This document shows, piece after piece, positions 3,345 through 56,851 of a stretch of 57,880 nt of DNA (its first letter is position 1; every line of letters starts with the position of its first letter). A program made the translations under genes and the position numbers. The notes under the pieces were generated by a model. The model made no database searches. It was not told the origin of the DNA and saw only the letters and a list, made by a program, of their open reading frames with translations. The stretch is from positions 1 to 57,880 of IMG/VR virus record IMGVR_UViG_3300033388_001119. One strand, 5' to 3'. This DNA is from a virus (Duplodnaviria; Caudoviricetes).

Positions 3345-4907
3345 ATGATTATAAAAGACATCAGCTTTGGTGAAGAAGCTAAAGAGCGCTTGCTTAGTGG
3401 CGTTGATAAAATAGCTAACGCAGTAAAGAGCACGTTAGGGGCTCAAGGTCAAACAGTCCTAATAGAATCAGAAAGTCATACAGGTGGGGTAACAATAACA
3501 AAGGATGGGGTAACTGTTGCTAAGAGCATCCATGTATTAGATCCTGCTGAGGACTTAGCTATACGTGTAATACGTGAGGCTTCAGTTAAGACAGCTACAG
3601 AAGCTGGTGATGGAACTACTACAGCTATTGTTTTAGCTCAAGCAATAATTCACGCAGCTCTAAAGCGAGTTAAGCCACATATGAATAACACTACGATAAT
3701 TCGCCACATGCAATCCTTAGGCGAACAGATTTGTAAAGAACTCGATAAGAAAAGTAAAAAGGTTACGTCTAAAAGATTAATTGATGTTGCTACTATATCC
3801 TCAAACAATGACAAGGAGTTAGGTAAGATTATATCATCCACATATGAACAAGTAGGTAAATCGGGAGTTGTGTTAGTAGAGAATGCTGACGGTAGTGAAA
3901 CAACAAGCGACCTAACTGAAGGAATGAGAATAGAGAGAGGGTTTACTTCTAGATACTTCATCAACAATCCTAAACTAGAAGAGTGTGTCTTAACTAATCC
4001 AAAGATATTATGTCTTAACACTATGATAGAGTCTATCGGAACTATTGAGCATGTGTTAGCCGATATCATGAAACAAAATCAATCATTGCTTATTATTGGT
4101 GAACTTGATCCGAAAGTCTTAAATACATTGAATTTAAATAAAATGAGAAACGGATTAAAGGTTTGTGCGATTAAGCCACCGAACTTCGGGTGGAGAAAAG
4201 ACGACCTTATGGCTGATATAGCATTAGCAACAGGAGCTACTTGTTTTACTGAAGAAGCTGGAGATGCTTATCAGATGGTTAGATATGAAGATTTAGGTAG
4301 AGCAGATAAAGTTGTAGTAAACCATGACAATACCATCATAGTTCTTAATGAAGAAGATAAACCATACATAACGGAACACGTGGAAGGTATATGGGAAAGC
4401 ATGGACTCATCTAAGCATAAGGATTTTTTAAAAGAACGAATAGCAACAATCTCCGGTAAAATTGGCGTAATCTATGTGGGAGCTAACTCAGAAATAGAAC
4501 AAAAAGAAAAAAGAGACAGAGTGGACGATGCGGTCTGTGCAACAAGAGCGGCTCTTGAAGAAGGGATTCTACCCGGAGGAGGCGTGGCTTTAAAAGAAAT
4601 TTCGGACGACCTCGCTCAGCGAGGTGATGGTGAGTCGCAAAGAGTTGCGACAATGATTTTAACCGAGGCGCTAAAAACACCATTCCAACAAATACTCCTC
4701 AACGCAGGACTAGATCCTAAGCAAATAGACAATTGTTTAGACCCTGGAGTAGGTTACGATGTAAAGAATGATCAATATGGCAACATGTTTAAAATGGGAA
4801 TCATAGACCCTACTAAAGTAACTAAGTCAGCTGTATTAAATGCCATATCAGTAGCTAGTACATTCCTAAGTACAAATGCCATTATAACTAACGTACGAGA
4901 AAAATGA
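3345..4907 (+). CDS. groEL: Phage-encoded chaperonin GroEL (Cpn60), 520 aa
   Basis: ITKDGVTVAK, AGDGTTTA, ERIA, DDAVCATRAALEEGILPGGGVAL and GIIDPTKV motifs. Confidence 0.97.
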   Translation: MIIKDISFGEEAKERLLSGVDKIANAVKSTLGAQGQTVLIESESHTGGVTITKDGVTVAKSIHVLDPAEDLAIRVIREASVKTATEAGDGTTTAIVLAQAIIHAALKRVKPHMNNTTIIRHMQSLGEQICKELDKKSKKVTSKRLIDVATISSNNDKELGKIISSTYEQVGKSGVVLVENADGSETTSDLTEGMRIERGFTSRYFINNPKLEECVLTNPKILCLNTMIESIGTIEHVLADIMKQNQSLLIIGELDPKVLNTLNLNKMRNGLKVCAIKPPNFGWRKDDLMADIALATGATCFTEEAGDAYQMVRYEDLGRADKVVVNHDNTIIVLNEEDKPYITEHVEGIWESMDSSKHKDFLKERIATISGKIGVIYVGANSEIEQKEKRDRVDDAVCATRAALEEGILPGGGVALKEISDDLAQRGDGESQRVATMILTEALKTPFQQILLNAGLDPKQIDNCLDPGVGYDVKNDQYGNMFKMGIIDPTKVTKSAVLNAISVASTFLSTNAIITNVREK

Positions 4908-39224: not shown

Positions 39225-42200
39225 ATGAGTGTAAACAATTTTTTAAACGACTTTTATGTAGAAAATACTGGTCAAGCTCCAACAGAAGAGATGGTTACTA
39301 GGATTACTCAGCAATACGGAGATAATTATGACGGTTTAATTAATGACTTAGCTATAGAGATTGGGGGAGCTAAAGAAGTAAATACCGATATAATAAATAA
39401 GATAAAGACTCAATACAATTTGATGAGTGTGAACAACACTCCTAACACTCCTGACACTCCTGTAAAAAAAAAAGGAGAAACTATTACTACTCAAGAGGAT
39501 GTTATGGTTTCCGATTCAAATGGAGAGGAAGATATTATTTCATCGGACTCTTTAGAAGTTCAGCCAACAACTGATACAGACCCACCTAATAAAGCTTTTG
39601 GTAGAGTTAGCGATAAGGATGTGTACGTAAGCGAAAGTTCACCTGAGGTAAAATTCAATCCTATATATAAAGGTCAACAACCATCTACTCATTTAATGAG
39701 GGCTGAGCAATTAGAGAATGGTGATTGGGTTGGATTCCCCTCTTTAATGCAAGATAAAAACGGAGATTGGATTAATATGTCTTATTTACCAGATGAAGAT
39801 TGGGAGCAAATATATAAAAAAGCAGACGAGTTAGGAGAGGTGGTTAATTTTGGTAGCGATAAAGAATCGGCTTTAGCTTATGGTGAAGGCTCATGGAAAG
39901 AGAGTTATAATAAAGGTGAACATTCAGAAAGTTTATATGAGAAGAAAATAGCAGCTGATACCAAAAAGCTTTTGCAAGAACAGAGTGACGCTATTGAAGA
40001 GGAAGCGAAAGAAAGGCAAGAAAGGGAAGACTCTAGAATGGAAATTACCAACACCGTTGGTTATGATGATGGTCCAGGTAGTACATTTGGAATGTATAAA
40101 ATAGAAATACCAGAGTATACTGACCTTGCAGACCCTAAAAGAGATTATGCAGCTAGTGTTATAGGTGAGCTGTATGAGGGGACCCTAGGACTTAATGACG
40201 ATGGTAGTTTAATTATGCCTACTCCAAACCAAATGATGGGTGGTGATAATATTTTTTATTACGGACCTCAAGAAGCTACCGCAATGATTCAAGCGTTTAG
40301 TGAAGATGGTTTTTTTGGAGATGATAAATGGACGCTTAAGCAGATGTATGAGAATAATCCAGTTAATAACTATATGCAAGCTCAATACAATAACGGAGCT
40401 CAATCATATGGAAGTATAGATGGTTACATGAGAAGTAAGTATCCTGGTTATAATTCTATAGCCGACACACATAAAGAATATGAAGGTGGTAATTACGGTA
40501 TAAAAGATTGGGATAATATTTCTGAAGATGATGCTAACTTTATTAGGATGAAGTTTAATTCTAGAGCAGGAGATTTAACTATTAATAGCGCTAACACAGC
40601 TGATAAAAATAACGCTTACTTAAGAGCTGGACTATACGATTTAAAAACAGACATCACTTATGAGGTGACTAAACTAAATGCTTTAAATCAAGACTTATTG
40701 TATAACAATTATACTATGGCAGCTATTCCTTTAGAGGAGTTAAGTAAAAATGAAAAGAAGCAATATGAGGAAAACATGCGTAAAATGCTTGCGCTAACAG
40801 CTGATTATAATATGGTAAATCAAGAATGGGCTAACCTTCAAGAACCGGACTTACGAATGTATAACCCATTTACAAATCAACTAATAGATGCCTCAAATCC
40901 TAATTCTCAATTGATAGGGAATTATAATGATAAAATAGACGAAGAGGCAGCTAAGCTTGCTATAGAAAAGAATCCGAAAGAACTGCAAGAAGCTTTTGAT
41001 GTGAACTATCAGCATGTAATGAACTTAGCGAAGAAGATTAAATTAAACTATAAATACAACAAACCAGTAACACATAACGGAGTAACATACCAAAAGGGAG
41101 ATGTTATTGATAGAACTAATTTACAAGTAGTAGCTGAGTGGATGGGCGAAATGGGTGGGGTAAATGAGTATGAAGACCTTGCAATGAACCCATTAGCATT
41201 AGTGTCAGGTCAGCCTACAGAAGATTTAATAGACATGTTCCCTGATCCAGAAGCGGTAGTAGCCTCCGCTGGGTTTCCTATGATAACTAGTAACACGGAG
41301 ATAGCTATGGAATACAATAGGGCTATTTATGAGCTAGCAGTAATCAATACAGCGTTAAAAGAAAATAGAGACCCTAGTAAACTACAAAAGGGAGAAAGCA
41401 TTGTGACTGGTTCTTTAATTGGCTCTGGGCGTGTAAAAAACAACGGAACCTTAGATTACGTTTATAATAACATGGATGAAGGTGATAATGAGTTACCTTT
41501 TTATGTATCTACCCTAGCCGAAATGGATAAAACACTACCTGAAACTGCTAGGTTTCTTAATAGAGTTAACGAGGGGTTTTGGAGCACATTATATGGAGAT
41601 GCTACAGGAGAATATTTATTTGGAAACGTTTATAACCAAGCAAGCTACCTTTCTACAGCTCTTGATAAAGTAGGACTAGAGGGTAGTTACATAGACGACT
41701 TAAGGACTAGGTCACAACCAGATAATATAGATTTTGCAGGTGGGTTAACAGGAACTGTATTTGGAATAGTTTTAGAATTTGGTGGAGCACAGGGATTATT
41801 AAAAGCGCCAGCTGCTATAGCTGAAGGTGTTATGGCTACTGAACTTTTAACCGTAGGAGGAGCAACTGAAAAGGTTACTAGGGGATTAACATATACTAAT
41901 ATAGATAAAGTCTTTGGGTCTGCTTATGAATTAAACAGACTGAAGTTGATATCAGGTGGTAGCCCATACACTATATTTGGTAGTAATGTAGTATTAAGGT
42001 CCATGCAAGGTGGTATCGAGTTTGGTACAACAGGATTAGTCTTAGATAAAACAGATGAATATAGGTGGCGAGATGGGTTAGCTTTTGGTGCTGGTTATGG
42101 AATATATAGTGAAATGGGAGCTCTTATTAGTAGAAGCCCGTCATACCAAAAAATATCTCAAAAGGTAAATGATTTTAAATACAGTTATACCCCGTCCGTA

Positions 42201-45200
42201 GGTGTATATAAAAAACCAAGTATCCTTCAAAGAATCAAACAAGGAGGTATCGGTACAGCTCAAGCGACTACAAAAGTTGCAGGAAGCGCCGCTATTGGTA
42301 CAGGTATTTCGTATGCCATAGAGTTATTTGATGAAACAATTTCTCCTGACGACCCCTTAATGGCCGAGCAGCTAAACAACTTACCAGAGGAGATTCAAGG
42401 AAACTCTAAAGCACTAACTACTTTTTACACATTTGCAGGATTAGGACTCTTAAACAAATCACTTGGTAAGCAATTAATGACAGACATAAAAGGTTTAAAA
42501 CCATTTGATGTATCCTTTAATCATTTCTTTAGAAGTCAAGAAGCTTATCGTGCTTGGAAGAATAAACAAGGAACTCCACAAGGCATGAAGCTACTAACCG
42601 AAGGCGCTAAAGATGTAATGGAGAATGGAACACCAGAACAAAAACAAAACTTAAAAAACCAAGAAGCTATATCCTCGTATAATAATGGTTTAACTGAGGC
42701 GAAAAATGAAATATATAAGTACGATAAAAAAGTAGAGGATTATAATAATTCTATTTCTGTTGTTAATAGTGTAAATAACAACCCTTCTAAAAAACCAAAC
42801 AATATACCTGTAAAGCCGGTGCCTAACGCTCAAGGAGACGGAGAGATAGAGGTTCCTGACAATGGAACTGAAGAAGGTAACTTGCAGAATATTGAAAATA
42901 TTATTTCCACTCCATCGAAAGATTTAGAAAACGCAGCTAAAGGAGAAGTGAAAGATGGAAACATTTCAGAAGAAAATGGAATGAATGGAATAAACGCTGT
43001 TCAAGATGTGTTAGCCACTAATAGTAAAGTAAAAGGAATTCAGAACACTAAAGTTAGAGCTAGAGCGGTCCAAGCACTACAGACTAAGAAAGAACTACAA
43101 AGAGAGTTAGATAAATTAAATGAGGACCACAAGAATGGTGTGGTGGCTAACTTTGAAGCAGAAAAAAAGAATCTAGAGGAAAAGATTAAAAACGTTGATC
43201 AACAAATTACTGAAATAGAAAGCTACGAAGAAACAGAAGCTGACTACGTAACTGACTTAATTAAAAATAAAGATAGACGCAATCACGATGTTAGTGGACC
43301 TGGAATCCCAGGGTTAAAGGAAAAGTATCCTAAGTTAGCGGAGTTCTTACAACAAAAACACGCAGAAGGTATGACACCTGTAGAGGCGTTAAAAGAATAT
43401 CAAAAGCAACCGCCTGAGGTTACAGAGGTTGAGTCAAAAGCAGAAGTTGTAGAGGGAGAGGGTGGCGCTCCAGTTAGTGGTAAACAGGACTTACCGACAG
43501 CATCAACTGAACAGTCAGCGGAAACCACACAAGAGAGTAATCAAAATGTAGAAGAAGTTGTACAAGAAACTGCACAAGAAACAGTAGTAAAACCTTCTAA
43601 ATTTACTTGGGATCCAATCCAAGAAGCATTTGTAGAATCAACTCCTCCCGAAACTTTAGAAGTATCTGTTAGTGGTAATTTTGATGGCTTAAGAACACAG
43701 GGGAAAGAGACTATGGATTTACGAGGTGACGCTAGAGGTAAAGATGGTGAGATAATAGAAACTAAAAACAAAGAAGGCGAAACAGTTTTAACCTTAGTAA
43801 AAGAAACTTACGACGCTGAGGGGAGACCTGGATATGTAGGCGTGTCAGTTACTTTACCTGAAGGTAGTACTAAAACAGCTGATGATGTTAGAGCTGAGCT
43901 AGAGAATCAAATGAATAAACTAACTAATGGGGAGGATATTTCAGGAAAAAGTTTTAGTAATATTAATGATTTAAACCCCTCAGCTGTAGATAAAAATGTA
44001 GAATTTAAAACACAAGAAGATGCCATTCAAGAGCCAAGCGCAGAGAGCGTACCTGTACAAGAATCACCCGGAGATAGCGAAGCGGTGGTCGAAAGCGTAC
44101 CCGAACCAGAGGTCGCTCCCGAAAAAGTTGAAGTCGAAGAAAAAATCGAAGTTGAGGAGACGCCGAAAGAAGAAGTAATAGAAGCAGAGGTAGTTGAAGA
44201 GCCTGTAGTAGATAATAAGGAACCTAGACAACCTGGTAAAGTAGAACAACCACCTAAAAGAGGTTCTCAAATAGACCAAGACTTAGACGCTGTTATTAAT
44301 AGCGGCACGAAAGGAGAGGCTTTATTAAGACAAAACTTAGAAGCTAAAGGATATAGAAAAGACCAAATAGATAGAGCGATTAGAAGAAAAGATAGAGAAG
44401 CTTTAGTCGAGTTAAAAAATCTAAAGAAAGACTTACAGTTACAAGGTAAAGCTAATAAGAAGTATACTGTTAAAGCCACGGATGAATTTAAGAAGCAGCT
44501 TAAAGATGTTATTGATAGATTAGCCGGTGATAGGAATATAAAATTTACTAAAGGCGAACTAAATAAAATACTAGAAGCGGCTACAGGTACCGAAATGCAA
44601 GGTCTTAAAGTGGAAAAAGCGATAGAGAAAGCGGTGGAAGTGGTAGAGAAAAGTGTTAAGCGTTCATTAAATAACAACATTAATGACTTACTTAAACTTA
44701 AAAATGTAGAGAAAAAACAAGGAAAAAGAAAGGTAGGAAAAATTAGCATTGACTCTAGAAGACAATTTAACGACTTGAGAGATGAGTGGAAAAAAATTAA
44801 TCCTAAAGATTTAACTATAGGTGAAATGGAGGCTATAGAAACTGAATTAAGTAGTTTGATTTATGAAGGTAAACTAGCTGTAGAGCCTGCGCAACGCATA
44901 ATAAGAGACACTAGAAGAAGTGTTAAAGGTCAAGTAAATGAATCACTATACAGTGATCAAACTCCAAAGACAGATTTTAAAAACGGGGTACCTGACGTAG
45001 AAGCTTATTTAAAAGATAATACTAATAATTTTGTGATTATAAACGGTCGTCAAGTTAGTTCTGTCTCTGGGCTTAATGATTTTATTAAAGACAATCCGTT
45101 TGTAGATGTATCTCAAGCTAAAGGATATGTAGCTACTACTCCAGCAGAAGCAGCTCAAGCAGGTAGACCTAGCATATTAAGCGGTTTAAAATATTGGACT

Positions 45201-47528
45201 CTAGATAATTGGCAAACTATTAGAAATACAACTGCTAAACTGAGAGGTAGAGGAGGTAAAGCTGTTCATAAAAACGTGACATCTTTAATTGATAATATAT
45301 ATAGGTCGGAGTATAGGGAAATTGTAGGTAAACATCAAACTAGAGAATATGTGAGGAGTCAAATAAAAGACATCCCAGGCTACTCTAATAACAAACTAGG
45401 GAGAATAGAATTTAAAAACTACTTAACTAACTCGGCTCCAAGTAATATTACTACTAGTAAAAATTTAGACATAACAAACGACCAGGCGGTCTATATGTAT
45501 TTATTAGGAAAAAGAGATGGTGTAAAAAGATTGGAAGATAATAAGATAGACCCATTAGCTTTAAGTAATTATATAGAAAATAATCCAGCATTAAAAACCT
45601 GGGCTAGTAAAGTGGCTAAGATATTTGGTCAATATGGATATGATAGATATAATGAAAGATATGAGGTTATCACCGGTAAACCAATGCCAAAGGCTAGTGG
45701 AGAAATTACCGCTAGTATGGAGGGTGACCCTACAAGTGTATATATACCTATTCAGATAAATCCCGATGTAGCCCCTGTGGACCCGTTTGGAGAAAAGGGT
45801 GAAGACGCTCAATATTCAGGGCTTAACGTTTTGTCAGCTCACTTATTAGAGAAAACTAGTGACAGAGGAGCTACAAAAATAATTGGAACCATGGATGCTA
45901 TGGATAGATACTTTACTACTATGGAACATATGAGCGCTTTTTATGATGTAGCTCAACAATATAACAACATATTCAATCCTCAAGCTAGACCTCAAATGAT
46001 AAACATATTAGGAAGGGGAGGTTCTAATAAATTAGACAAAATAATGGAAGTTCTTAATGAGGGGATTACTGGAAACAGAAGAGTTACTATTGGAGATAGA
46101 GATAAAATAGATAAGACGATAACTCAAATTGGTAGATTTCCGGTCTTCTGGGGACTAGCTGGAAAGACTAAAACAATGATAGGACAAGCTAGTAGTGGTG
46201 TAGCCTATCCAAAAGAGTTCTTAAAATACTTAACCCCTAAGGAGTTAGTAGGTGGATACATGAATGTAGGTAAAGGGTTGATAGGTAAAGGTGCTTCTGT
46301 GGCACAACAGTTAGGTATTAAAAAACCCACTGATAAAAGAATTCTAGAGGAAGATACATTTTTCTTAGAAAAATGGGTAACCGACCCTCAGTTTGCTGAC
46401 AGGTGGAATAAAAATAAAATAGATCCCTTATTTCAAATACAAGATGTTGGGGGCGGAAAAGATTTATGGGATAGAGCAGCTAATGTGCTTCTTTTGGGTG
46501 TAAAAACAGGAGACATGATGGCTTTACAAATGGGTGTCGGTGGAACAAACGCCCTATATCATAAGTACATTAACGAAGGAATGAGTAAAGAAGATGCGTA
46601 TGATAAAGCGGCTGGTATTTATTACATGATAACTCAAGAAGCTCAACAAACAGGAAGTAGGCTAGGGTTACCAGATTACCTTAATAATAGGTTTAGTAGA
46701 GCAGGAATTACTTTTACTACTAGTATTAACTCTATAATGAATAAAGGAGTTGGGGGTGGAAAAGAGTTTTACTATAGAGGTAAAGATATGACTGGAGGTG
46801 AGAAACTTCACGCTTTAACAGACCTTGGTTTTTATACAACAGTTTTATCTGGATTATTCATATCCCTCGTGGGTCAAGATGATGAACGAGAAAAAGAAAT
46901 TGAAATGTTAAAGACAAGGTACCCAAACACTTTTGACGACAATCAGGCTACTACGAAAAAAAATATTTCTTTTGGACTAGACTTAATACAAAGTGATTTA
47001 CAAGGTTTAGGACCCGTTGGTGTTGTTGGGAATATGTTTTTAAACTCAGACGCTATTAATCCATTTGACTTTCATAGAGGTAAGCCTCAAAGTTTCAGTG
47101 AGCTACCTTTGACTTCTGCCGCAAAGAAAGTATATAATGCTATGGATGTAATGACTAACGCTAAAGGAGAAACTTATGAGGAAAAATATAACAGTTTAAG
47201 TGATTATGAAAAATATCAAGTAGATGCAGCTTATGGGGCTTTTGGTAAGTTCATGGAACGCATGGAAAAAGCAGGAAAAGGAGAAGTAAGTTTAATAGAT
47301 TTTATAATGGAAAGAGATGAGGATTATGGGTTAACAAGAAGACGAATGGAAGAGATGGATGGGGATAAGATATTAGATTGGGTGTATTATATGTACACTG
47401 GTATAAGACCTCCTCAAGAAGCAATAGGTGGTAATGCAGGCACAGGCTCTACATATAAGAAGACAGAGAGTAAATCTACTTACGAAACAAAAAGTAATTA
47501 TGATGAGGGAAGTACTTATGGTAATTAA
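39225..47528 (+). CDS. Giant probable ejection protein (2767 aa)
   Basis: Last late gene; Gly-rich hydrophobic middle, acidic linker, helical C-terminal half; no catalytic motif recognised. Confidence 0.7.
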   Translation: MSVNNFLNDFYVENTGQAPTEEMVTRITQQYGDNYDGLINDLAIEIGGAKEVNTDIINKIKTQYNLMSVNNTPNTPDTPVKKKGETITTQEDVMVSDSNGEEDIISSDSLEVQPTTDTDPPNKAFGRVSDKDVYVSESSPEVKFNPIYKGQQPSTHLMRAEQLENGDWVGFPSLMQDKNGDWINMSYLPDEDWEQIYKKADELGEVVNFGSDKESALAYGEGSWKESYNKGEHSESLYEKKIAADTKKLLQEQSDAIEEEAKERQEREDSRMEITNTVGYDDGPGSTFGMYKIEIPEYTDLADPKRDYAASVIGELYEGTLGLNDDGSLIMPTPNQMMGGDNIFYYGPQEATAMIQAFSEDGFFGDDKWTLKQMYENNPVNNYMQAQYNNGAQSYGSIDGYMRSKYPGYNSIADTHKEYEGGNYGIKDWDNISEDDANFIRMKFNSRAGDLTINSANTADKNNAYLRAGLYDLKTDITYEVTKLNALNQDLLYNNYTMAAIPLEELSKNEKKQYEENMRKMLALTADYNMVNQEWANLQEPDLRMYNPFTNQLIDASNPNSQLIGNYNDKIDEEAAKLAIEKNPKELQEAFDVNYQHVMNLAKKIKLNYKYNKPVTHNGVTYQKGDVIDRTNLQVVAEWMGEMGGVNEYEDLAMNPLALVSGQPTEDLIDMFPDPEAVVASAGFPMITSNTEIAMEYNRAIYELAVINTALKENRDPSKLQKGESIVTGSLIGSGRVKNNGTLDYVYNNMDEGDNELPFYVSTLAEMDKTLPETARFLNRVNEGFWSTLYGDATGEYLFGNVYNQASYLSTALDKVGLEGSYIDDLRTRSQPDNIDFAGGLTGTVFGIVLEFGGAQGLLKAPAAIAEGVMATELLTVGGATEKVTRGLTYTNIDKVFGSAYELNRLKLISGGSPYTIFGSNVVLRSMQGGIEFGTTGLVLDKTDEYRWRDGLAFGAGYGIYSEMGALISRSPSYQKISQKVNDFKYSYTPSVGVYKKPSILQRIKQGGIGTAQATTKVAGSAAIGTGISYAIELFDETISPDDPLMAEQLNNLPEEIQGNSKALTTFYTFAGLGLLNKSLGKQLMTDIKGLKPFDVSFNHFFRSQEAYRAWKNKQGTPQGMKLLTEGAKDVMENGTPEQKQNLKNQEAISSYNNGLTEAKNEIYKYDKKVEDYNNSISVVNSVNNNPSKKPNNIPVKPVPNAQGDGEIEVPDNGTEEGNLQNIENIISTPSKDLENAAKGEVKDGNISEENGMNGINAVQDVLATNSKVKGIQNTKVRARAVQALQTKKELQRELDKLNEDHKNGVVANFEAEKKNLEEKIKNVDQQITEIESYEETEADYVTDLIKNKDRRNHDVSGPGIPGLKEKYPKLAEFLQQKHAEGMTPVEALKEYQKQPPEVTEVESKAEVVEGEGGAPVSGKQDLPTASTEQSAETTQESNQNVEEVVQETAQETVVKPSKFTWDPIQEAFVESTPPETLEVSVSGNFDGLRTQGKETMDLRGDARGKDGEIIETKNKEGETVLTLVKETYDAEGRPGYVGVSVTLPEGSTKTADDVRAELENQMNKLTNGEDISGKSFSNINDLNPSAVDKNVEFKTQEDAIQEPSAESVPVQESPGDSEAVVESVPEPEVAPEKVEVEEKIEVEETPKEEVIEAEVVEEPVVDNKEPRQPGKVEQPPKRGSQIDQDLDAVINSGTKGEALLRQNLEAKGYRKDQIDRAIRRKDREALVELKNLKKDLQLQGKANKKYTVKATDEFKKQLKDVIDRLAGDRNIKFTKGELNKILEAATGTEMQGLKVEKAIEKAVEVVEKSVKRSLNNNINDLLKLKNVEKKQGKRKVGKISIDSRRQFNDLRDEWKKINPKDLTIGEMEAIETELSSLIYEGKLAVEPAQRIIRDTRRSVKGQVNESLYSDQTPKTDFKNGVPDVEAYLKDNTNNFVIINGRQVSSVSGLNDFIKDNPFVDVSQAKGYVATTPAEAAQAGRPSILSGLKYWTLDNWQTIRNTTAKLRGRGGKAVHKNVTSLIDNIYRSEYREIVGKHQTREYVRSQIKDIPGYSNNKLGRIEFKNYLTNSAPSNITTSKNLDITNDQAVYMYLLGKRDGVKRLEDNKIDPLALSNYIENNPALKTWASKVAKIFGQYGYDRYNERYEVITGKPMPKASGEITASMEGDPTSVYIPIQINPDVAPVDPFGEKGEDAQYSGLNVLSAHLLEKTSDRGATKIIGTMDAMDRYFTTMEHMSAFYDVAQQYNNIFNPQARPQMINILGRGGSNKLDKIMEVLNEGITGNRRVTIGDRDKIDKTITQIGRFPVFWGLAGKTKTMIGQASSGVAYPKEFLKYLTPKELVGGYMNVGKGLIGKGASVAQQLGIKKPTDKRILEEDTFFLEKWVTDPQFADRWNKNKIDPLFQIQDVGGGKDLWDRAANVLLLGVKTGDMMALQMGVGGTNALYHKYINEGMSKEDAYDKAAGIYYMITQEAQQTGSRLGLPDYLNNRFSRAGITFTTSINSIMNKGVGGGKEFYYRGKDMTGGEKLHALTDLGFYTTVLSGLFISLVGQDDEREKEIEMLKTRYPNTFDDNQATTKKNISFGLDLIQSDLQGLGPVGVVGNMFLNSDAINPFDFHRGKPQSFSELPLTSAAKKVYNAMDVMTNAKGETYEEKYNSLSDYEKYQVDAAYGAFGKFMERMEKAGKGEVSLIDFIMERDEDYGLTRRRMEEMDGDKILDWVYYMYTGIRPPQEAIGGNAGTGSTYKKTESKSTYETKSNYDEGSTYGN
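39464..39511 (+). other. Candidate -1 frameshift or slippage signal (A10 plus hairpin)
   Basis: GTA AAA AAA AAA GGA; stem GAAACTAT 39477-39484 with ATGGTTTC 39504-39511. Confidence 0.55.
44020..44178 (+). CDS. Nested +1-frame basic protein (52 aa, MPFKSQAQRAYLYKNHPEIAKRW...)
   Basis: Hand translation; A-rich leader; local rise in GC; N-terminus recalled from stand-alone small phage proteins. Confidence 0.75.
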   Translation: MPFKSQAQRAYLYKNHPEIAKRWSKAYPNQRSLPKKLKSKKKSKLRRRRKKK

Positions 47529-55573: not shown

Positions 55574-56851
55574 TCATTTAGACAAATCCATATTACTTAG
55601 GATATGTGATATAACGTCTATTGTCCATCCATTGCCTAGCATTTTATATCGCTGACTATTAGATACGTGGTTGGTATAGTTATCAGGCACGGTTTGTAAC
55701 CTCTCACATTCAAGTGGTGTTAACTTCCTGTAGTGATAACCATCCACCACGTTAGGATTTTCTTCATCCGATTGTTTAGTTGGTACCATAGTTCTCTGTT
55801 TACGTTCTATCGAATTCCAAGCTACAGCTCCTCCATAGCTCGCTGTTAATGAATACGCTTTACCGGTCTTAGTCGCTGACTTATTCTCAAACACCATATA
55901 GTCGTAGTTGGCAGCTGTTAGGCAGTTAGATTTATCCTTCATGTTTCTACCTCTACGTGTCTTACTATTAGGAAATGTAAAGTCGAAGCAGTCGCCCTCC
56001 TGGATTTCAGTATACCCTTTCTTTGTCGCTTCTTTGACTATTAACACTTTAGGCTCTCTATTACCTCCCGTACATGTATTGACTGTCGGTGACTTAGCTT
56101 TGCTACCATACACTCTTTTTAATGATGCATGCCCATTGATGTCGTCTGCGTCCGCAACATGATGACATACAGCATTAACATCAAAATCTCTAGGTGTAGC
56201 TGGCCTAATACCGGTCATTGCTTGATTACCAAAACCTTTATAATCTCTAGCTAATAAACAATGTGACTTATCTATATTAGACTTAGTAGCTTTCTTTCCT
56301 TGGTTAGCTACCATATCAGCAACTTCGTTAGGTGATAGTAATATATCCCTTAACACTATACCTTTGTCTTTAGGTTGTGTAACATTAGGAATGTTAGTCC
56401 AATATAATCTTCGTCTATTCTGAGCTGATAGTAGTGAGGAGTTAATGTCTATAGGTTCTACACCCATTTCTTTAGTTATAATATCCTTATACTCTTTCTT
56501 CATATTCACGTTCTCTAATAAAAAGTATTTAGGTTTTAACTCTCTTACTAATCTAACAAACTCAAAGAATAACTTACTACGTGGATCGTCAAAGTTAAGT
56601 TGCTTACCTGCGAAACTAAAACCTTGACATGGTGAACCAGCAAGTATAAGGTCTATCTTCTCGTCTCCAAAATCATCAGCCTTAATCTGTGTTACATCTC
56701 CAATTTGTATTGTGTTAGGATAGTTGGCTTGCGTTACTTTAATCGCATACTTATCTATCTCACTTGCGTAATAGGTATCGTACTCAATACCCAATCGGTT
56801 GAGGGCAAGCTGACCGCAGCTCATCCCATCAAATAAACTTAGTACATTCAT
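55574..56851 (-). CDS. DNA (cytosine-5) methyltransferase
   Basis: LSLFDG, GSPCQ, ENV, QNRRR, RKLTPLECERLQ, LGNGW motifs. Confidence 0.95.
   Translation of the reverse strand: MNVLSLFDGMSCGQLALNRLGIEYDTYYASEIDKYAIKVTQANYPNTIQIGDVTQIKADDFGDEKIDLILAGSPCQGFSFAGKQLNFDDPRSKLFFEFVRLVRELKPKYFLLENVNMKKEYKDIITKEMGVEPIDINSSLLSAQNRRRLYWTNIPNVTQPKDKGIVLRDILLSPNEVADMVANQGKKATKSNIDKSHCLLARDYKGFGNQAMTGIRPATPRDFDVNAVCHHVADADDINGHASLKRVYGSKAKSPTVNTCTGGNREPKVLIVKEATKKGYTEIQEGDCFDFTFPNSKTRRGRNMKDKSNCLTAANYDYMVFENKSATKTGKAYSLTASYGGAVAWNSIERKQRTMVPTKQSDEENPNVVDGYHYRKLTPLECERLQTVPDNYTNHVSNSQRYKMLGNGWTIDVISHILSNMDLSK

Follow-up and report, generated by a model that had tools for sequence, protein, structure and literature searches.

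A conserved run of ten adenines is very probably a recoding signal near the start of a giant phage gene

Results

The A10 site in the window

The stretch of DNA analysed here, referred to as the window, is the virus record IMGVR_UViG_3300033388_001119 (Duplodnaviria; Caudoviricetes) over its full length of 57,880 nucleotides (nt), with an A+T content of 64%. The completeness estimate of this 57.9 kb record is 95%. On the plus strand it carries a giant open reading frame (ORF) of 2767 amino acids (39225..47528, frame 0; from the ORF list and its translation), which is the last gene of the virion module and follows the gene of a muzzle-like protein. Close to the start of the giant ORF is a run of ten adenines (A10; 39464..39473, plus strand), the proposed shift site and the subject of this work. 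The run is preceded by an N-terminal domain (N-domain; residues 1-79, 39225..39461, plus strand), delimited from alignments and N-domain listings, and is followed by an acidic linker and then by a conserved domain of 72 amino acids (STHLMRAEQ...GEGSWK; 39684..39899, plus strand). In the homologous giant proteins, which share it, the latter lies about 70-110 codons past the run, and it was used for finding relatives.

An initial annotation of the sequence had suggested programmed −1 frameshifting at A10. The run is present at 39464-39473 as claimed, is read GTA AAA AAA AAA GGA in frame 0 and is the longest homopolymer of the window. It holds a slippery heptamer in the zero-frame phase, in fact two overlapping in-phase A_AAA_AAA heptamers, GT[A AAA AAA] and A[A AAA AAA]. 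The −1 frame is open for 39 codons followed by TGA (39455..39574, plus strand), and the 33 codons at 39473-39571 make up the tail proper. The −1 peptide is exactly the one first annotated, RRNYYYSRGCYGFRFKWRGRYYFIGLFRSSANN, ending at TGA 39572-39574, with 11 aromatic, 8 basic and 0 acidic residues and the conserved motifs CYGF and YFIGLFRS. Segment 39455-39571 is the joint longest of the 403 stop-bounded −1 segments in the giant ORF, for which the median is 4 codons, and its openness was rarely reached by synonymous-codon resampling (P = 0.008). The +1 frame is open for 29 codons (39466..39555, plus strand) up to a stop inside a conserved TTTAG. This would be the product if one A were lost, and its openness is inconsistent in relatives.

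A second start at Met67 had been suggested as well, from a repetition of the MSVNN that begins the protein. The repetition exists as a 14-nt direct repeat at 39225-39238 (ATGAGTGTAAACAA) and 39423-39436 (ATGAGTGTGAACAA) with 13/14 bases identical, and a partial duplication of the gene's start region is a possible origin. As a start, Met67 was not upheld, for of 14 N-termini inspected, only those of the window and of its closest relative, P0004, contain MSVNN twice. Directly 5′ of the A-run, positions 39435-39461 consist of three tandem 9-nt units (AACACTCCT, AACACTCCT, GACACTCCT) encoding NTPNTPDTP, a lineage-specific repeat without counterpart in the relatives read.

Relatives and conservation of the run

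Relatives were fetched by means of the 72-amino-acid domain, a query blind to the run, yielding 60 loci from viral contigs, 80 from metagenomes and 2 from genomes. An initial search of the viral contigs with the single protein gave no loci. The giant protein has homologues of 2022-3048 amino acids. Their whole-protein alignment contained no usable conserved stretch, and N-terminal alignments were used instead. About half of the domain-retrieved loci have other N-terminal architectures and lack a long A-run, and 70 of the 128 loci in which the domain was found by motif search had no run of at least 8. A long A-run is present at the junction in every locus that combines a small N-domain with an acidic linker behind it.

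A census of A-runs in 140 loci (655 kb) counted A6 908 times, A7 343, A8 63, A9 4, A10 55, A11 3 and A12 2 times, and the junction run is nearly always the sole run of at least 9 in its locus. Exactly A10 was found at the homologous junction of 121 related loci, and A12 in 2. Two codon phases of the run were found, xxA AAA AAA AAA G (VKKK, LKKK or IKKK) and G AA AAA AAA AA Y (EKKN), and an in-phase A_AAA_AAA is present in both. Thus the peptide varies while the ten adenines stay, which argues for selection on the nucleotides. AAG is absent inside the run in all run-bearing loci, the run is uninterrupted throughout the A10 loci (0/121 broken), and the base after the heptamers is also A.

In the first scan of viral contigs, 21/21 run-bearing loci had exactly A10 and were in frame. 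A profile search with the tail returned 19 database protein clusters of 78-127 amino acids in which N-domain, KKK and tail form a single ORF, and the conserved tail motif of these clusters was back-translated and used to fetch loci independently of the 72-amino-acid domain. In every viral locus retrieved in this way (66/66) the run is exactly A10, the tail is encoded in −1, and the N-domain shares the frame of the long ORF. Contigs from four DNA sequencing runs were uninformative on heterogeneity of the run, since one spans it with A10 and the rest break nearby, beside adapter-like loose ends. In homologues with this architecture both a pure A-run and an open −1 frame are kept, as the initial annotation would predict, in place of AAG breaks or early stops. 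The run is broken only in L078 (GAA GAG AAA AAG AAT) and L083 (GAG GAA AAA GGT), and there the −1 frame closes after 7-8 codons.

The −1 frame as a coding frame

Past the run, no −1 stop occurs for 26-36 codons in any lineage except L058, while the medians of the synonymous-codon null are 1-15. The openness had P < 0.05 in 25/35 distinct contexts and P < 0.1 in 33/35, and in a smaller set all 12/12 were at P <= 0.051. For the +1 frame, P < 0.05 was reached in only 8/35 contexts. The −1 peptides can be aligned, with two invariant glycines and the motifs [SCR]YG[IF] and [FIL][FI]G[LFWC]F. No start of its own was found for this frame: an upstream ATG, GTG or TTG occurs in 0/33 contexts, and a stop stands directly before the codons of the run in 20/33.

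Tails were pooled from 121 loci with 86 distinct tail DNAs, of which 56 tails lie below 85% identity. Among these 56, amino-acid entropy per column was 1.90 bits in −1, 2.23 in frame 0 and 2.37 in +1, and single-base differences at −1 codon positions 1/2/3 numbered 4538/2258/6826, the usual pattern of a coding frame, although these constraint statistics count related sequences many times and are descriptive, not probabilities. With most changes at −1 third positions, frame 0 is consequently most variable at its second position. Synonymous differences made up 6153/13622 (45%) in −1 and 3171/13622 (23%) in frame 0, leaving 77% of the frame-0 changes non-synonymous. The downstream domain, taken as control, showed the normal frame-0 pattern, with entropies of 0.68, 0.48 and 1.11 by codon position. 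The invariant Gly of the YG motif is encoded as GGA, GGT or GGG while frame 0 there has E, V, G or D, and swaps between Ser and Leu in frame 0 correspond to silent changes of Ile or Phe codons in −1. The −1 frame evolves as a protein-coding frame, and it is probably the frame of the tail that mainly determines the first approximately 33 codons of the acidic linker.

These patterns bear on an explanation without recoding, according to which the run is Lys-Lys-Lys or Lys-Lys-Asn written in the preferred AAA codons of an AT-rich phage, or some other DNA or RNA signal, and the −1 features are by-products of an acidic Ser/Thr-rich linker. A frame 0 rich in D, E, S and T does mechanically yield −1 codons rich in R, G, Y and F, and at 64% A+T an A10 is expected about once or twice per window by chance. 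Such by-products would not account for a constant A10 under a peptide that changes between VKKK, LKKK and EKKN, or for 55 runs of A10 against 4 of A9. Nor do they fit a frame 0 that changes most at its second positions and mainly non-synonymously, unlike a constrained frame, the avoidance of −1 stops far beyond the synonymous-codon null, or the joint loss of run and −1 ORF. We regard the explanation as improbable. Still less credit is given to an attenuator, where slippage would do no more than reduce how much giant protein is made, with the shifted peptide as waste. Waste would not keep the invariant Gly, Tyr and aromatic positions, the constant length and the third-position variation across 56 diverged lineages, even though a frame change at the run, be it to −1 or +1, leads to termination within 26-36 codons, L058 combines A10 with a −1 frame of only 4 codons, and few copies of so large a virion protein are probably required.

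RNA structure around the run and the device of a sister group

The layout put forward in the initial annotation was that of slippery site, spacer and hairpin. The 8-bp stem (39477-39484/39504-39511; stem-loop 39477..39511, plus strand) does exist, with 7 Watson-Crick pairs and 1 G-U pair, and has the lowest energy among local folds (-7.8 kcal/mol). As a signal it found no support: its stability is that of shuffled sequence (z = -0.97; 36/200 shuffles fold equally well), other pairings displace it in longer folds, and no conserved structure was found downstream or upstream of the run. RNAalifold predicted 0 pairs downstream in the A10 group, both in 12 and in 31 sequences, and ten single downstream folds had z from -1.30 to +1.64. 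Of the upstream hairpins of the kind that stimulates polymerase slippage there was little sign, with only 1/10 upstream 50-mers at z < -2 (the tenth overlaps the run). Rfam had no match at the window site or at the site of the sister group described next.

This sister group of 19 loci (L080, L084, L214-L230) is without the A-run and has another device at the same junction. An in-phase A_AAT_TTT is found in 12/19 loci and NNT TTT in 18/19, and after a 6-nt spacer comes a GC-rich hairpin of 8 pairs, with 98.9% of cells paired and compensatory changes in 3 pairs. Its covariation was 0.365 compared with 0.257 when shuffled (0/500 as high), and slid controls were 18-53% paired. A conserved structure 5-9 nt downstream, as expected of a stimulator, is thus found in the sister group and not in the A10 group. 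The −1 ORF of the sister group has 34-77 codons (34-50 in 17/19 loci) and encodes a Cys-rich part and then a YG..G..FFG tail. By its sequence the sister device has the make-up of a textbook ribosomal −1 cassette that would serve a similar tail. Homology between the tails of the two groups is weakly supported by their alignment. In the sister group, upstream N-domains are swapped between otherwise near-identical loci, and the junction is therefore also a recombination boundary.

The most serious competitor of polymerase slippage at A10 is a purely ribosomal −1 shift. The ribosome would slip on the tandem A_AAA_AAA of the unedited messenger RNA, and two overlapping slip sites would replace the missing hairpin. 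An in-phase A_AAA_AAA is indeed available in both codon phases, the conserved alternative frame is −1 as in classical programmed frameshifting, and in the sister group a −1 tail of this kind is accessed through A_AAT_TTT, spacer and covarying hairpin. A ribosome could however do with 7 bases and would allow A_AAA_AAG, yet 0/121 A10 loci break the run and the following base is held as A. No stimulatory structure is conserved in the A10 group, and in the E. coli PURE system little frame loss is reported at A9 or A10 (PMC4363877). A purely ribosomal shift is held to be the less likely of the two, though not by a wide margin.

Predicted products

The predicted trans-frame protein would have about 116 amino acids from Met1, namely residues 1-80, the lysines and the 33-residue basic aromatic tail, and would share the N-domain with the giant protein. 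In relatives the N-domain is highly variable and mosaic, often with two short helical repeats. In L065-type and many other loci it consists mostly of two tandem helical units of about 25 amino acids, LYxxLxxxGxYxKSxEEFxxxF, which resemble short oligomerisation motifs and have no match in Pfam. For the tail, AlphaFold2 predicts three beta strands with a predicted local distance difference test score (pLDDT) of 70 (25 sequences).

By analogy with dnaX and lambda G/GT, the short protein may serve the giant protein as partner, adaptor or chaperone. This role is proposed because the phage-specific N-domain is kept while the giant body is swapped for a conserved small beta-strand tail. By the same kind of analogy, the shift would also lower the output of giant protein.

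The giant gene and its genome context

No Pfam or PHROG family matched the giant protein, and a profile search was without match. Residues 566-710 (40920-41354) gave a weak PDB sequence match (E = 0.017) to the UFD1 N-domain, too little to name the fold. The UFD1 N-domain is a double-psi beta-barrel. It is not named a virion RNA polymerase here, as a conserved DxDxD motif at a common place is missing. The position of the gene suggests that its product is a virion or ejected protein. The 72-amino-acid domain has a confident predicted fold, yet no structural match in the PDB at E <= 0.001. The N-domain, the 72-amino-acid domain and the tail have no match in Pfam even at E <= 10, and the ESM Atlas gave only leads below threshold. 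Searches with blastn and tblastn for the giant gene in cultured phages of the GenBank phage collection returned no match.

Other genes in the window include those of the large terminase, the portal and a structural protein. The 2011-amino-acid protein encoded at 29286-35321 matches the crAss-type muzzle protein PF25731 with its first approximately 143 residues (E = 1.2e-10) and also PHROG 14478 (E = 2e-189). This is a phage of only 58 kb, far below the size of gut crAss-like phages. A phage GroEL-type chaperonin is encoded at 3345-4907 (PHROG 5725, E = 4e-137; Pfam Cpn60_TCP1, E = 1e-59), and a C-5 cytosine DNA methylase (Pfam PF00145, E = 3e-52) at 55574-56851 on the minus strand, in the replication arm. 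At 2195-2279, runs of A7, A8, A9 and A7 and one of C7 are clustered within 85 bases that may be intergenic, regulatory or origin-like. Two related contigs were binned under the labels Bacteroidetes and Flavobacteriaceae, a weak hint of the host.

Discussion

The A10 run is, on comparison of the related sequences, very probably a conserved recoding signal of some kind at the boundary of the small N-domain and the acidic linker of a giant virion protein. Recoding into −1 is favoured because it alone explains the fixed pure A10 in two phases, the startless but constrained −1 frame, the loss of run and frame together, and the ribosomal cassette of relatives. From the interpretation in the initial annotation, a shift into −1 at the A-run and a second product with shared N-terminus and cationic aromatic tail are borne out by the relatives, while the hairpin layout and the start at Met67 found no support, and the suggested binding to membrane or nucleic acid and control of dosage are conjectural.

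Most expression would read through the run and give the 2767-amino-acid protein, while a fraction would enter −1 inside the run and give the short trans-frame protein. RNA polymerase would slip on the A10/T10 hybrid and add one A to some transcripts, one added A being equal to the −1 frame, and a ribosomal −1 slip on the in-phase A_AAA_AAA heptamers may contribute. RNA polymerase slippage as the main route is put at even chances, by analogy with known cases. It is preferred to the ribosome because ten uninterrupted adenines are always retained where a ribosome could do with 7, because the A10 group has no hairpin while the ribosomal cassette of the sister group has one, and because of the run lengths at which the two machineries are reported to slip. 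Bacterial RNA polymerase is described as slipping efficiently at runs of 9 A/T, with a hybrid of 9-10 bp and a predominance of insertions (PMC5009743), and ribosomes of the E. coli PURE system as sliding robustly at A11 and little at A9 or A10 (PMC4363877). The junction run has the traits of a site of transcriptional slippage of the type known from Thermus dnaX, IS elements and Shigella spa13, being pure, of at least 9, about as long as the RNA:DNA hybrid and conserved at the nucleotide level against synonymous AAG. For ribosome sliding, at A11 or more in the E. coli PURE system, A10 falls short, and the host system may differ.

A number of observations weigh against recoding by slippage at A10 or against parts of it. 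The run by itself is not beyond chance: dinucleotide shuffles of the window contain 2.55 +/- 2.35 A10/T10 and at least one in 80/100 shuffles, and of run, stem and −1 open stretch only the −1 stretch exceeds chance within the window alone. In L058, A10 is at ORF codons 4-7 with the short −1 frame mentioned above, and the constraint statistics carry the limit given with them. Alignment of the tails of the A10 and sister groups with hhalign had a probability of 11% (E = 0.003, 17 columns). The in-phase A_AAA_AAA of the run and the ribosomal device of the sister group speak for the ribosomal route, and the polymerase and ribosome of the host may differ from the cited E. coli and Thermus systems. 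Finally, some assemblies have runs of other length, A11 in L111, L097 and L098, A9 in L119 and A12 in L094 and L096, and these and the 19 one-frame ORF clusters may be sequencing or assembly errors or real variants at the DNA level.

The off-length runs amount to 6/~61 run-bearing domain-retrieved loci, 4 of them out of frame (L097, L098, L111 and L119), versus 0/66 tail-retrieved loci. With A11, L111 reads N-domain and −1 tail as one frame, and L097 and L098 (A11) belong to a lineage whose in-frame form is A12 (L094 and L096). In L006 the −1 frame is joined to the giant ORF by a 19-nt deletion, the undeleted form being present on contigs of two sequencing runs, and L005 has a 34-nt deletion. 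L119 has, besides the A9 at its junction, a second A10 directly before the ATG of the giant gene (L119:1604-1613).

Such variants could mean a contingency locus, at which replication slippage toggles the DNA between A10, with the giant protein made, and A11 or A9, with the short protein made and the giant off, so that phage populations would be mixed instead of one genome giving both products. The 4 out-of-frame loci, the 2 with A12 and the database clusters that encode N-domain and tail as one ORF would fit, and contingency loci are reported for several phages, T2 and T4 among them, in a preprint of 2025 (10.1101/2025.10.21.683753). An 'off' genome would on the other hand be without a 2767-amino-acid virion protein conserved in all relatives, all 66/66 tail-retrieved and 21/21 first-scan viral loci are exactly A10 and in frame, and the heptamer and hairpin of the sister group are not a mutable tract and yet serve the same −1 ORF. 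The off-length cases are mostly on short contigs (P0018 of 600 nt, L111 of 4266 nt) and may be errors. Toggling at the DNA level is accordingly held to be unlikely, and recoding of A10 transcripts remains the preferred explanation.

The class of mechanism is already known, and several systems resemble the one predicted here. In Thermus thermophilus dnaX (tau/gamma), with a run of nine A/T, a long product is made in one frame across a pure homopolymer without RNA structure, and in slipped transcripts an early stop in another frame yields a short protein with the same N-terminus (PMC5009743). Here in contrast the gene is a phage virion gene, the run is A10, the tail is a conserved, apparently functional one of 33 codons instead of a few residues before a stop, and slippage is predicted. 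The in-phase slippery heptamers and the −1 product recall E. coli dnaX and orfA/orfAB of insertion sequence (IS) elements, which use A_AAA_AAG and a downstream hairpin. The A10 group differs from these cassettes in having no conserved hairpin or other stimulator, and its shift truncates rather than extends. IS elements are reported to achieve the same end by ribosomal frameshifting or else by transcriptional slippage (PMC5009743), a choice of two devices that matches the A10 group and the sister group with heptamer and hairpin.

A short, conserved, startless −1 ORF in a very long ORF, expressed as an N-terminal fusion after insertion of an A at GAAAAAA, is described for potyvirus P3N-PIPO (PMC5009743), there in a plant RNA virus with its viral RNA-dependent RNA polymerase and a shorter run, here in a DNA phage. 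The tail assembly chaperones gpG/gpGT of lambda have one start, a shared N-terminus and C-termini that differ by a −1 shift, likewise in a virion module (PMC5009743), but the lambda shift extends and is near the 3′ end of a small gene, while here a giant gene would be truncated after about 80 codons. No homology to gpG/gpGT was found. The contingency loci of the preprint above also have homopolymer tracts that change the frame of phage genes, and iterated AAA codons are reported to cause loss of frame by ribosome sliding on poly(A) (PMC4363877). Unlike either of these, nearly all genomes here are fixed at A10 in frame, and robust sliding is reported only from A11. A literature search, with supplements outside its scope, found no description of this cassette, tail or gene family, which are to that extent without earlier description.

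If the interpretation is true, A10 would be a widespread natural recoding signal, with at least 121 loci and 86 distinct tail sequences, in abundant marine phages without a cultured representative in the searched collection. It would reveal a conserved small protein that is invisible to annotation pipelines and current gene callers, and would account for the survival of a perfect A10 in coding sequence, which normally avoids runs of this kind. It would also offer a first handle on how virion proteins of 2000-3000 amino acids are handled or dosed. Two related gene families would be doing the same task with two devices, as in dnaX and the IS elements, which makes the choice between polymerase and ribosome directly testable. 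The breadth, the exactness and the natural pairing of two devices give the finding its interest to specialists in recoding and in phages. More tentatively, and with somewhat less than even confidence, the small three-strand beta tail in −1, fused to a fast-evolving N-domain and accessible through recoding only, may be an obligatory gene within a gene of a large group of uncultured marine phages, with the device swapped in evolution between a bare A10 on which RNA polymerase slips and a ribosomal heptamer with hairpin, and the short protein may be a new and widespread partner in virion assembly or ejection.

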